Sequence record: PQ666542
Length of the DNA: 64,000 nucleotides
Direction: 5' to 3' (one strand)
From: Shigella phage sb4
Within the stretch, counting starts at the first letter, position 1; the number at the start of each line of letters is the position of its first letter. The notes below the pieces were generated by a model. It had not been told where the DNA came from, made no database searches, and was given only the letters and a program-made list of their open reading frames with translations. A program made the translations under genes and the position numbers. This document shows, in pieces, positions 50,334-52,316 of this stretch.

Positions 50334-52316
50334 ATGGCAAATACCCCTGTAAATTATCAATTAACAAGAACAGCAAATGCTATTCCCGAGATATTCGTCG
50401 GGGGTACATTTGCTGAAATAAAACAAAACCTCATTGAATGGCTTAATGGTCAAAATGAATTTTTGGATTATGATTTTGAAGGCTCAAGATTAAACGTTCT
50501 GTGTGACCTTTTGGCTTATAATACATTATACATTCAGCAGTTTGGTAATGCTGCCGTGTATGAAAGCTTTATGCGTACTGCTAACTTACGTAGTTCAGTA
50601 GTTCAAGCGGCGCAAGATAATGGATATTTACCTACTTCAAAATCAGCTGCTCAAACTGAAATTATGCTAACTTGTACAGACGCATTGAATAGAAATTACA
50701 TTACTATTCCTCGTGGTACTCGCTTTTTTGCATATGCAAAAGATACTTCTGTTAATCCTTACAACTTTGTATCTACCGAAGATGTTATCGCTATTTGCGA
50801 TAAAAATAACCAATATTTTCCGCGTTTAAAATTAGCTCAGGGACGTATAGTAAGAACTGAAATCATTTATGATAAATTAACACCTATTATCATTTATGAC
50901 AAAAATATAGATAGAAACCAAGTTAAACTATACGTCGATGAAGCAGAATGGATTAACTGGACAAGAAAGTCAATGGTTCATGCTGGTTCTACATCAACAA
51001 TTTACTACATGCGTGAAACTATTGATGGAAATACTGAGTTTTATTTTGGTGAAGGTGAGATTTCTGTTAATGCGGCAGAAGGAGCATTAACTGCTAATTA
51101 TATTGGGGGTCTTAAACCTACTCAGAACTCTACGATTGTTATTGAGTATATCAGTACTAACGGTGCGGATGCGAATGGCGCAGTCGGATTTTCATACGCA
51201 GATACATTAACAAATATAACTGTCATCAATATTAATGAAAACCCAAACGATGACCCAGATTTTGTTGGGGCAGATGGCGGCGGTGACCCAGAAGATATTG
51301 AACGTATTCGCGAATTGGGTACTATTAAACGCGAAACTCAGCAACGCTGCGTAACTGCGACTGACTATGATACATTCGTTTCAGAGAGATTTGGTTCTAT
51401 TATTCAAGCAGTTCAGACTTTCACTGATTCTACTAATCCTGGTTATGCAATTATTGCTGCTAAACCTAAATCAGGTCTGTAATAAACAACCGTACAGCGC
51501 GAGGATATTAAAAATTATCTCAAAGACTATAATTTAGCTCCTATTACACCATCAATTATTTCTCCTAATTTTCTTTTTATTAATACTAATTTAAAATTCA
51601 CATATGCTTTAAATAAGCTGCAAGAATCCGAACAGTGGCTAGAAGGTCAAATAATTGATAAAATTGATCGTTATTATACCGAAGATGTAGAAATTTTTAA
51701 TTCATCTTTCGCTAAATATAAGATGTTGACATATGTAGATGATGCAGATCATTATATTATTGGCTCATCGGCGACAATTCAGATGGTACGTGAAGTACAA
51801 AACTTCTATAAAACGCCTGAAGCGGGTATTAAATACAAAAATCAAATAAAAGATCGTTCTATGGAATCTAATACGTTTTCATTTAATTCCGGACGAAAGG
51901 TTGTAAATCCTGATACTGGCTTAGAAGAAGATGTATTATATGACGTTCGCATAGTATCAACAGACCGAGATTCTAAAGGAATTGGTAAAGTTATTATTGG
52001 TCCATTTGCTTCTGGCGATGTTACAGAAAATGAAAACATTCAGCCATATTCAGGCAACGATTTTAACAAATTAGCAAATTCTGATGGACGCGACAAATAC
52101 TATGTTATCGGTGAAATAAATTATCCAGCTGATGTGATTTATTTGAATATCGCTAAAATTAATTTAACATCTGAAAAATTTGAAGTTCAGACTATTGAAT
52201 TATATTCTGACCCAACCGATGATGTTATCTTTACTCGCGATGGTTCGCTGATTGTATTTGAAAATGACTTACGTCCACAATACTTAACTATCGATTTGGA
52301 GCCTATATCACAATGA
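50334..52316 (+). CDS. 6: baseplate wedge protein gp6; tandem in-frame TAA TAA at 51480-51485
   Basis: Track ORFs 50334-51482 and 51723-52316 share one frame; 660 codons. Confidence 0.9.

Follow-up and report, generated by a model that had tools for sequence, protein, structure and literature searches.

Nonsense changes of one base, as known from the classical amber, ochre and opal mutants and multi-amber strains of T4, affect genes 5, 6, 7, 10, 12, 13, 14, 43, 44, 62 and e in the DNA analysed here, a 64-kb stretch of Shigella phage sb4 (PQ666542) that we call the window. T4 laboratory strains, however, hold one or a few stops, usually of one type that matches a suppressor host, whereas the window holds 36 stops of three types together with hundreds of missense changes. 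Stop-recoded phages, in which TAG or TGA is reassigned or read by suppressor tRNAs, are similar in having in-frame stops inside structural genes, but the window shows no single stop type, replaced residue or suppressor tRNA, and its early genes are affected too. A further parallel is offered by kataegis-like clusters and oxidative G>T runs, in which the same change recurs on one strand over tens to ~100 nt; in the window, in contrast, several types of run occur (C>A, G>T and, weakly, T>A), and not one that is specific to an enzyme. Finally, deposited phage genomes that bear errors likewise combine premature stops and unselected substitutions with a normal backbone, and the blocks found unaltered in the window are those of the RefSeq exemplar, pSs-1. 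Compared with such records, the level of change in the window (~1.1% outside these blocks) and its near-zero indels are extreme.

The backbone of the window is an ordinary mosaic T4-like genome of the Tequatrovirus pss1 type. This Tequatrovirus segment forms a single collinear 64-kb alignment with Shigella phage pSs-1 at 97.26% identity (97-98% to pSs-1 and sb2), and its mosaic structure amounts to 141 minimal copying switches, compared with 107-177 in seven real phages. A total of 99 alleles private to sb2 are shared by the window. The gene content is that of pSs-1, where no DGR or reverse transcriptase is annotated.

On this backbone lies a layer of substitutions that are referred to as private, as none of the relatives in the panel (up to 13 phages) has them; seven related loci from IMG/VR served as extra panel members. 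The two stop pairs that drew attention to the window belong to this layer. The first, an in-frame TAA TAA in gene 6, was confirmed by the reading frame, of which it is the only interruption; downstream, the frame is open to its usual end at 52316. The pair is made by private T>A changes at 51482 and 51484, and a third T>A at 51488, which is synonymous, brings the number to three within 7 nt. Three more private changes (A>T at 51437, T>A at 51450 and A>G at 51503) complete the local patch, in which five of the six changes are A/T transversions. When the patch is reverted, the window is identical there to sb2 and to 121/2022-2B. A natural tandem terminator, as TAATAA would be at a gene end, was considered and rejected, because codons 383-384 of 660 are concerned and the homologous frame continues to its usual end.

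The second pair, in lysozyme e, was likewise recovered, by minus-strand translation, at the positions of Cys97 and Leu99 that the earlier note had given. The TGA of codon 97 occupies 35659-35661 and the TAG of codon 99 occupies 35653-35655, and on the plus strand they correspond to private A>T changes at 35659 and 35654. A missense change, V94A, lies 10 nt away from this pair. On the coding strand, the bases that make the two pairs are all T>A changes, and all the relatives aligned at each pair (eight or nine) read TAT-TTA in gene 6 and TGT/TGC-GCA-TTG in lysozyme. The coordinates of both pairs, of the remaining stops and of the blocks identical to pSs-1 are collected in Table 1.

Table 1. Premature stops, private clusters and pSs-1-identical blocks in the window, in order of position. 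Codons in brackets are those replaced by the stop.
Feature	Position	Strand	Remark
Gene 43 DNA polymerase, TAA	43..45	-	codon 178 (GAA in pSs-1)
Gene 62, TAA	1160..1162	-	codon 143 (TCA)
Gene 62, TGA	1454..1456	-	codon 45 (GGA)
Gene 44, TAA	1815..1817	-	codon 245 (AAA)
Gene 47, TAA	6953..6955	-	codon 59 (AAA)
pSs1_0081 homologue, TAA	11547..11549	-	codon 10 (TTG)
nrdD, TAA	14044..14046	-	codon 263 (AAA)
Gene 49 endonuclease VII, TAA	15102..15104	-	codon 67 (CAA)
pSs1_0090 homologue, TGA	15372..15374	-	codon 50 (CGA)
pSs1_0092 homologue, two TAA	16044..16067	-	codons 14 and 21 (both GAA), 7 codons apart
pSs1_0097 homologue, TAA	17183..17185	-	codon 44 (TAT)
nrdC.6 homologue, TAA	20990..20992	-	codon 198 (TTA)
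nrdC.8 homologue, two TAA	22261..22455	-	codons 105 (TTA) and 41 (CAA)
Further pSs-1-identical blocks	25186-25595; 58091-58818; 61535-62053; 62406-63015
Second pSs-1-identical block	27158..28028		871 nt
rI.1 homologue, TAA	28895..28897	-	codon 4 (TTA), within a 3-change cluster
pSs1_00123 homologue, two TAA	29750..29779	-	codons 33 and 24 (both GAA), 9 codons apart
pSs1_00125 homologue, private run	30086..30195	-	7 C>A (coding-strand G>T) and one G>T in 110 nt; makes TGA (30153-30155) and TAA (30087-30089)
vs.3 homologue, private run	32447..32549	-	7 C>A and one G>T; makes TAA (32481-32483)
Internal-protein homologue, TAA	34883..34885	-	codon 29 (AAA)
Lysozyme e reading frame	35455..35949	-	164 codons plus stop
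Lysozyme e, TGA-GCA-TAG	35653..35661	-	codons 97-99, from TGT GCA TTG
Lysozyme V94A (GTT>GCT)	35669	-	private A>G on the plus strand; third member of a 16-nt cluster
Largest pSs-1-identical stretch	36465..41209		3376 nt + 1353 nt, zero private substitutions; split by 3 differences at 39841-39856
Internal head protein homologue, private run	43462..43555	-	4 C>A; makes TGA (43553-43555)
Gene 5, TGA	49404..49406	+	codon 544 (TGG)
Gene 6 reading frame	50334..52316	+	baseplate wedge, 660 codons
Patch around the gene 6 pair	51437..51503	+	6 private substitutions in 67 nt
Gene 6, TAA TAA	51480..51485	+	codons 383-384, from TAT TTA
Gene 7, TAA	52661..52663	+	codon 117 (CAA)
Gene 7, TAA	53792..53794	+	codon 494 (GAA)
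Gene 7, TAA and neighbours	55160..55170	+	codon 950 (GAA); first of 4 private changes in 4 consecutive codons
Gene 10, TAA	58064..58066	+	codon 243 (CAA)
Gene 12, TAA	59814..59816	+	codon 6 (TAT)
Gene 12, TAG	60645..60647	+	codon 283 (TGG)
Gene 13, TAA	63266..63270	+	codon 140 (TAT); adjoining private T>A missense at 63270
Gene 14, TAG	63831..63833	+	codon 18 (TAT)

The window holds 36 premature stops (27 TAA, 6 TGA and 3 TAG), 32 of which lie outside the tight pairs. Over the 20,019 aligned codons this amounts to one stop in 556, near the one in roughly 700 estimated earlier. None is due to an insertion, and 35 of the 36 are one base away from a pSs-1 sense codon. More than ten essential genes are hit, along with tiny accessory ORFs. 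With genes 43, 44, 62, 5, 6, 7, 10, 12, 13 and 14 interrupted by stops, and in the absence of a suppressor tRNA, the phage presumably cannot grow, and therefore the layer would not derive from a replicating lineage.

The layer comprises 613 private substitutions in 62,880 covered nt (0.97%, or ~1.1% outside the verbatim pSs-1 blocks); for 584 of them, the site does not vary within the panel. By effect, 374 are missense, 161 are synonymous, 36 are nonsense and 42 lie outside coding sequence, compared with 415, 113, 42 and 42 expected for 613 changes without selection; between 18 and 64 kb, the corresponding figures are 262/110/24/30, against 285/80/28/33. The effect ratios are those expected without selection, and the layer is unfiltered by it. 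As regards the stops, 36 are observed and 41.6 expected in the whole window, while between 18 and 64 kb the 24 observed compare with 27.6-28.9, the latter value having been computed from coding-strand change types. An enrichment of stops over missense changes in conserved genes is not borne out, since the panel count is at or slightly below the neutral expectation. Private changes affect the codon positions alike; they reach 9.9 per kb in essential genes and 11.6 in the other genes, and five fall in the tRNA genes (790 nt). A leave-one-out control gives the scale of the anomaly: in seven real relatives, private changes are synonymous at 62-73% of the sites and transitions at 67-82%, stops number 0-2, and same-type neighbours are not in excess. 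In the window, by comparison, 26% are synonymous and 40% are transitions, stops number 24, and same-type neighbours make up a fraction of 0.29 vs 0.11.

The spectrum of the layer is broad, with all six change classes present and A:T>T:A (177), G:C>T:A (149), G:C>A:T (135) and A:T>G:C (94) in the lead. New bases are A or T in 73% of the cases, C<->G changes are almost lacking, and the mutation bias drives GC below the genome's own GC content. Only nine private indel events occur, so that substitutions outnumber indels by ~70:1. Since six change classes are involved, and not a single source base or type, enzyme-driven hypermutation of the deaminase or DGR type was discarded, as was a motif-driven error of the basecaller type, for the contexts of private changes (+/-6 nt) show weak preferences only. 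The rate of G:C>T:A is lowest at CCG (0.17%), which is the context reported as typical of 8-oxoG library artefacts, and higher at NCT, CCA and GCA, a pattern that resembles reactive-oxygen signatures; it varies 3-4-fold with the 3' neighbour, not systematically. An 8-oxoG artefact of library preparation would bring strand-coordinated G:C>T:A changes; in the window, the C>A and G>T runs are strong, but G:C>T:A makes up only 24% of the layer and has its minimum at CCG.

The private changes are not independent of one another. Gaps of 10 nt or less between neighbours number 93, compared with 43-49 expected, a ~2-fold excess, and neighbouring changes are of the same type in 29-36% of the cases vs 11%. 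The same-type fraction is 35-38% at distances of 1-6 nt, the tendency extends over about 50-100 nt, and baseline is reached by 100-300 nt. Clustering of this kind is strongest for C>A (z=13), followed by G>T (z=5.8), both in strand-specific runs, and weak for T>A (z=2.0).

It had been proposed that two tight pairs would be improbable under uniform random mutation, and this proved correct: with 36 stops placed uniformly, the probability is 0.006 for two pairs no more than 2 codons apart and 0.002 for four pairs no more than 10 codons apart, so the stops lie closer together than uniform placement allows. However, when the observed clusters of the layer are kept in the null, 0.45 tight stop pairs are expected and the probability of two or more is 0.073. 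In addition, private missense and synonymous changes are clustered equally, an outcome that the earlier note itself had named as speaking against targeted stops. Of its suggestion of clustered editing, the clustering stands and comes near to what is found, while the specificity for stops does not. We therefore consider that the stop pairs arose as collateral of a layer of substitutions that is clustered and free of selection, a reading to which we give a probability of about 0.8, and that they most likely have no function and do not represent stop-cassette placement. A small burst of T>A on TAT-TTA in gene 6, or on TGT-GCA-TTG in lysozyme, would be enough to create two neighbouring stops. The cluster-aware value of 0.07 is not large, and some extra local process may also have contributed, because both pairs are T>A, a change with only weak same-type clustering.

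The distribution of the layer along the window bears on its origin. Private changes are absent from seven verbatim pSs-1 blocks of at least 400 nt, which total 7.9 kb and contradict a layer spread uniformly over the window. Private changes are missing where natural-type differences from pSs-1 are missing as well (Fisher P=5e-9). Within the blocks, the window carries 9 of 9 alleles private to pSs-1 and 0 of 71 private to sb2, and the protein encoded at 37628-38239, in the largest of them, occurs among 15 billion proteins only in pSs-1. As the private changes vanish exactly in these blocks, a reference-scaffolded consensus is the most economical origin. The phage in question would be pSs-1/sb2-like, its low-quality consensus having been scaffolded or gap-filled with the pSs-1 reference, and wrong base calls would fall in read-length runs of the same type.

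The layer is most likely of technical origin, as a poor consensus of this kind would be, or artificial, and for the technical, reference-scaffolded origin taken by itself the odds appear about even. Several features do not fit it easily. The ratio of substitutions to indels excludes typical long-read, 454 or Ion Torrent error, and a consensus substitution error of 1% is unusually high for Illumina as well. Moreover, the spectrum is AT-directed, with C<->G nearly missing, and resembles real mutation or damage no less than miscalling.

An artificial origin, in which the layer or the whole sequence came from a mutation simulator or a generative model fed with a pSs-1-like input, is a lesser possibility that deserves to be kept in view, and under it the pairs would again be collateral. 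It is consistent with a layer made almost purely of substitutions and free of selection, and with the absence of the mutated parts, as exact proteins or k-mers, from the collections searched, while the unmutated block corresponds exactly to pSs-1. In fact, exact 33-35-mers across each stop pair had no match in IMG/VR, nor had the gene 6 35-mer in GTDB genomes or JGI metagenomes; neither the gp6 fragment nor gp8 had an exact protein match, and among 15 billion proteins none was identical to gp8, gp9, wac, gp53, gp45, a-gt or the lysozyme fragment. The complete genomes of E. coli yielded no match, and neither a literature search nor the Sfk20 paper brought up anything on the origin of the layer. 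Nevertheless, a simple simulator would neither skip exactly the pSs-1-identical blocks nor yield strand-specific same-type runs and a near exclusion of C<->G, and the non-private differences are natural in their haplotype structure, as seen in the copying switches (141) and the sb2-private alleles (99) mentioned above.

Genuine clustered mutagenesis, captured from a non-viable or single genome, seems improbable. Candidate causes are strand-coordinated oxidative or abasic damage, bypass according to the 'A rule', a mutator polymerase or DNA damage inflicted by the host, and the sequence would have been obtained from a single molecule, by single-virus amplification or from a decaying copy. The runs of C>A (z=13) and G>T (z=5.8), which are strand-specific, argue for this explanation, as do the predominance of A or T among the new bases (73%) with C<->G nearly absent, a bias below the genome's GC of the kind that real mutation shows, the scarcity of indels, and the reactive-oxygen-like rise of G:C>T:A at NCT, CCA and GCA. 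However, an unusual sequencing route would be needed to catch unselected changes at 1% per site, and the clean verbatim blocks are left unexplained unless recent recombination with a pSs-1-type phage is invoked. The full version of this account, a faithful read-out of one dead T4-like genome with strand-coordinated clustered mutagenesis (from oxidative or abasic damage bypassed by insertion of A, or from a host defence) and pSs-1-type recombination before or after it, is more doubtful still. If the damage had really occurred in vivo, the stop pairs would be footprints of a clustered-mutation process in a phage, and the layer would document, as few records do, such mutagenesis in one genome of a T4-like phage.

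Pure coincidence, by which uniform and independent mutations came to adjoin twice by chance, is very unlikely. It would agree with a total of stops at the neutral expectation, and TAT, TTA, TGT and TTG are each one step from a stop, but the uniform model is contradicted by the P values given above for two pairs within 2 codons (0.006) and four within 10 (0.002), and the layer is visibly non-uniform, as gaps of 10 nt or less are about twice as frequent as expected and same-type runs occur.

Deliberate stop cassettes or engineered knock-outs, that is, paired stops placed to inactivate genes, had been proposed in the earlier note, and we judge them highly improbable. Doubled stops are a frequent design habit, the pairs within 2 codons are improbable under the uniform model (P=0.006), and positions 97 and 99 of lysozyme are well known from the engineered variants C97A and L99A. 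A connection with these variants was nevertheless rejected, because the two codons are stops, each made by a single T>A, and not Ala, and Cys54 is wild type. More generally, there is no insertion, every stop is a single-base change of a natural codon, TAA, TGA and TAG are all represented, only four of the 36 stops belong to tight pairs, and their frequency is that expected among ~600 unselected substitutions that include 374 missense changes. Next to both pairs there are also similar private changes that make no stop, and knocking out more than ten essential genes together would serve no design purpose.

That the stops are read as sense, through reassignment or phage-encoded suppression that leaves the genes intact, can be practically dismissed: the phage has a cluster of 10 tRNA genes, and suppressors can arise from T4 tRNAs by mutation, but the 64-kb window contains no suppressor tRNA (all 10 tRNAs have ordinary sense anticodons), stops of all three types are present, TAA stands in the place of E, K, Q, Y, L and S and TGA in that of G, R, C and W, so that a single reassignment would not account for them, and two consecutive stops would compound the inefficiency of suppression.

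With the stop pairs regarded as collateral of the layer, the window is unfit for inferring gene content, pseudogenes, recoding or engineering, and it matters mainly as a case of quality control; other findings in it that depend on interrupted genes or odd residues probably have this cause too. To tell layers of error or damage from biology in other phage records, the approach can be reused: private substitutions are called against a panel of relatives, their effects are compared with a no-selection expectation, the result is calibrated by leave-one-out analysis of real relatives, and clustering is judged with the observed clusters retained in the null. Two real records of the same species group show a weaker version of what is seen here, sb2 with 2 premature stops and a private spectrum rich in C>A, and Sfk20 with annotations of essential genes that are missing or truncated.

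Both stop pairs are present as the earlier note wrote them. Direct reading of the plus strand gives TAATAA at 51480-51485, in the frame of the ORF starting at 50334, which in close relatives is the 1983-nt gene 6 for the baseplate wedge; translation of 50334-52316 gives a gp6 of 660 residues, interrupted at residues 383-384 and nowhere else. In the lysozyme gene e (35455-35949, minus strand), translation places TGA at codon 97 and TAG at codon 99. These pairs are, with a probability of about 0.8, collateral of an unselected, clumped layer of substitutions that overlies a natural backbone of T4-like type and alternates with blocks identical to Shigella phage pSs-1 (NC_025829.1, Tequatrovirus pss1). 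A natural tandem terminator is ruled out in gene 6, whose stops lie mid-gene. Lysozyme positions 97 and 99 are known engineering sites, but this is no more than a coincidence: each codon became a stop through a change of one base, and residue Cys54 is wild type.

Over its full 64 kb the window is collinear with pSs-1 in one alignment block (97.26% identity, 1700 mismatches, 28 gap openings). Following the pSs-1 annotation codon by codon, 20,019 comparable codons show 922 synonymous, 576 missense and 36 nonsense differences and one stop-loss. The premature stops comprise 27 TAA, 6 TGA and 3 TAG, and 35 of the 36 are a single base away from the pSs-1 codon. They fall in the essential genes 43, 62 (twice), 44, 5, 6 (twice), 7 (three times), 10, 12 (twice), 13 and 14, as well as in genes 47 and 49 and in small accessory ORFs. 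Since the T4 counterparts of these essential genes are known to be essential, a phage with this sequence would be incapable of growth. None of the ten tRNA genes of the window encodes a suppressor, their anticodons all being ordinary; this, together with inconsistent replaced residues, rules out stop-codon recoding or suppression. A classical multi-amber strain was also rejected.

The substitution layer was defined against a comparison panel of as many as 13 relatives (pSs-1, sb2, Ec_MI-02, Sfk20, CrRp10, ime09, PYps32T, UGKSEcP1, HY01 and 121/2022-2B from GenBank, plus three IMG/VR contigs), a base being called private when carried by no relative at a site covered by at least five. By this criterion, 613 of 62,880 covered positions (0.97%) carry a private substitution, and 584 of these sites are invariant in the panel. 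The substitutions comprise 374 missense, 161 synonymous, 36 nonsense and 42 non-coding changes; 415, 113, 42 and 42, respectively, are expected without selection when the layer's own six-class mutation spectrum is imposed on all sites of the reverted sequence. Within 18-64 kb the picture is the same, with 24 stops against 28.9 expected from coding-strand change types alone. Because observed counts match this expectation, the stops occur at the frequency of unselected point changes, with no enrichment. Private density is about equal in essential and other genes (9.9 and 11.6 per kb), and five private substitutions fall in tRNA genes (41585, 41882, 41931, 41958 and 42370; Arg, Met, Thr twice and Gln), all ten tRNAs still being called by ARAGORN. 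In vs codon 94 (31002-31003) and codon 137 of the pSs1_00109 homologue (25184-25185), a double private change gives a sense codon where one change alone would give a stop.

Seven real relatives, treated by the same leave-one-out procedure, had private sites that were 62-73% synonymous and 67-82% transitions, with 0-2 nonsense changes each and no same-type neighbour excess; the window shows 26%, 40% and 24 nonsense changes in this comparison. With private sites removed, the backbone looks like a normal mosaic, with 141 copying switches against the panel (107-177 in real phages).

The suspicion that the stops are spaced more tightly than uniform chance allows was borne out: if 36 stops were scattered uniformly among the codons, two pairs no more than 2 codons apart would arise with P=0.006 and four no more than 10 apart with P=0.002. 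The whole layer is clumped, and not the stops alone, the outcome that the earlier note had named beforehand as speaking against targeting. Neighbouring private changes lie within 10 nt of each other 93 times, against 43-49 expected (P<0.001), and neighbours at 1-6 nt share the same base change in 35-38% of cases, against 11% expected, an excess that fades to baseline by 100-300 nt. The same-type runs are made up mainly of C>A (z=13) and G>T (z=5.8), each strand-specific and with up to 7 changes per ~100 nt; T>A contributes less (z=2.0). Both tight pairs lie within multi-change private clusters. The gene 6 pair sits in a patch of six private changes in 67 nt, among them three T>A (51482, 51484 and the synonymous 51488), and the lysozyme cluster joins V94A to two coding-strand T>A within 16 nt. 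When each observed multi-substitution cluster, with its offsets and change types kept, is set at every compatible coding position, 0.45 tight pairs are expected and P(2 or more)=0.073, so the clumping of the whole layer accounts for the pairs. Deliberate stop-cassette placement is unsupported, given no insertion, three stop types and collateral missense changes everywhere, and deaminase-like or DGR-like editing is ruled out by the many change types.

Coordinates of secondary stop changes, private indels, pSs-1-identical blocks and same-type runs
Feature	Position	Gene	Detail
Loose stop pair	16044-16067	tiny accessory ORF	7 codons apart, both GAA>TAA
Loose stop pair	29750-29779	tiny accessory ORF	9 codons apart, both GAA>TAA; not classed as private because ORF present in few relatives
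Stop-loss	42494-42496	pSs1_00150 homologue	TAA to TTA
Private indel	13308	nrdD	1-nt deletion, frameshift
Private indel	44878	gene 1	12-nt deletion, in-frame
Private indel	42305	tRNA-Leu	1-nt insertion inside gene
Private indel		pSs1_00150 homologue	2-nt deletion, at one of the indel positions listed here
Private indel	42519		
Private indel	43379		
Identical block	36465-41209		largest region
Identical block	27158-28028		
Identical block	25186-25595		
Identical block	58091-58818		
Identical block	61535-62053		
Identical block	62406-63015		
C>A run	30086-30195		seven C>A, one or two stops made
C>A run	32447-32549		seven C>A (in 32447-32545), one or two stops made
C>A or G>T run	29266-29362		strand-specific
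C>A or G>T run	43462-43555		strand-specific
C>A or G>T run	53778-53862		strand-specific
C>A or G>T run	55145-55163		strand-specific

Seven blocks of at least 400 nt, 7.9 kb together, are verbatim pSs-1 and lack both classes of difference, natural-type and private. Private changes are missing exactly where natural-type differences from pSs-1 are missing (500-nt bins, Fisher P=5e-9), and elsewhere they number a steady 4.5-5.5 per 500 nt regardless of natural divergence. Inside the blocks the window carries 9 of 9 pSs-1-private alleles and 0 of 71 sb2-private ones; outside, it shares 99 sb2-private and 20 pSs-1-private alleles. The window alternates, as a patchwork, between verbatim pSs-1 and an apparently error-laden sequence closer to sb2. 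Among ~15 billion public proteins, the product of 37628-38239 exactly matches only the pSs-1 protein, and seven proteins from mutated parts have no exact counterpart in any collection searched. The k-mers across both stop pairs are absent from IMG/VR, that of gene 6 also from GTDB genomes and JGI metagenomes, and a search of complete E. coli genomes with the gene 6/7 region gave no match.

The simplest origin, to which we would give even odds, is a technical one: a pSs-1/sb2-like phage may have yielded a consensus of poor quality that was scaffolded on the pSs-1 reference, or had its gaps filled from it, and whose miscalls fell in read-length runs of one type. That an artificial mutation or generation process made the layer is unlikely, even if it fits the near absence of indels (nine private events in total), the AT-directed spectrum almost devoid of C<->G changes, and the context preference of G:C>T:A, which is 3-4 times commoner with T or A after the C than with C or G. 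The same three features would suit genuine strand-coordinated damage recorded from one dead genome, an origin that is very improbable. Under none of these origins are the stops targeted. The pairs are best regarded as error or damage in the sequence and are thus of little biological interest; what the analysis chiefly offers is a warning that the window is unreliable for any inference from interrupted genes.

Two deposited relatives show a milder likeness. Shigella phage sb2 (PQ666540.1) carries two premature TGA codons absent from pSs-1, in the rI.-1 homologue (codon 10) and in denV (codon 107), and its private spectrum is rich in C>A. In Shigella phage Sfk20 (MW341595.1), essential genes are missing or truncated in the annotation, which is without genes 5, 3, 11 and 57B and has genes 6 and 8 truncated; the problem lies either in the record or in its annotation. 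At 24447, in the nrdC.11 homologue, the window has one T more than pSs-1, where this gene is split into two CDS (pSs1_00107/00108); since the annotation of the other relatives shows one gene of 1011 nt, the frameshift appears to belong to pSs-1.
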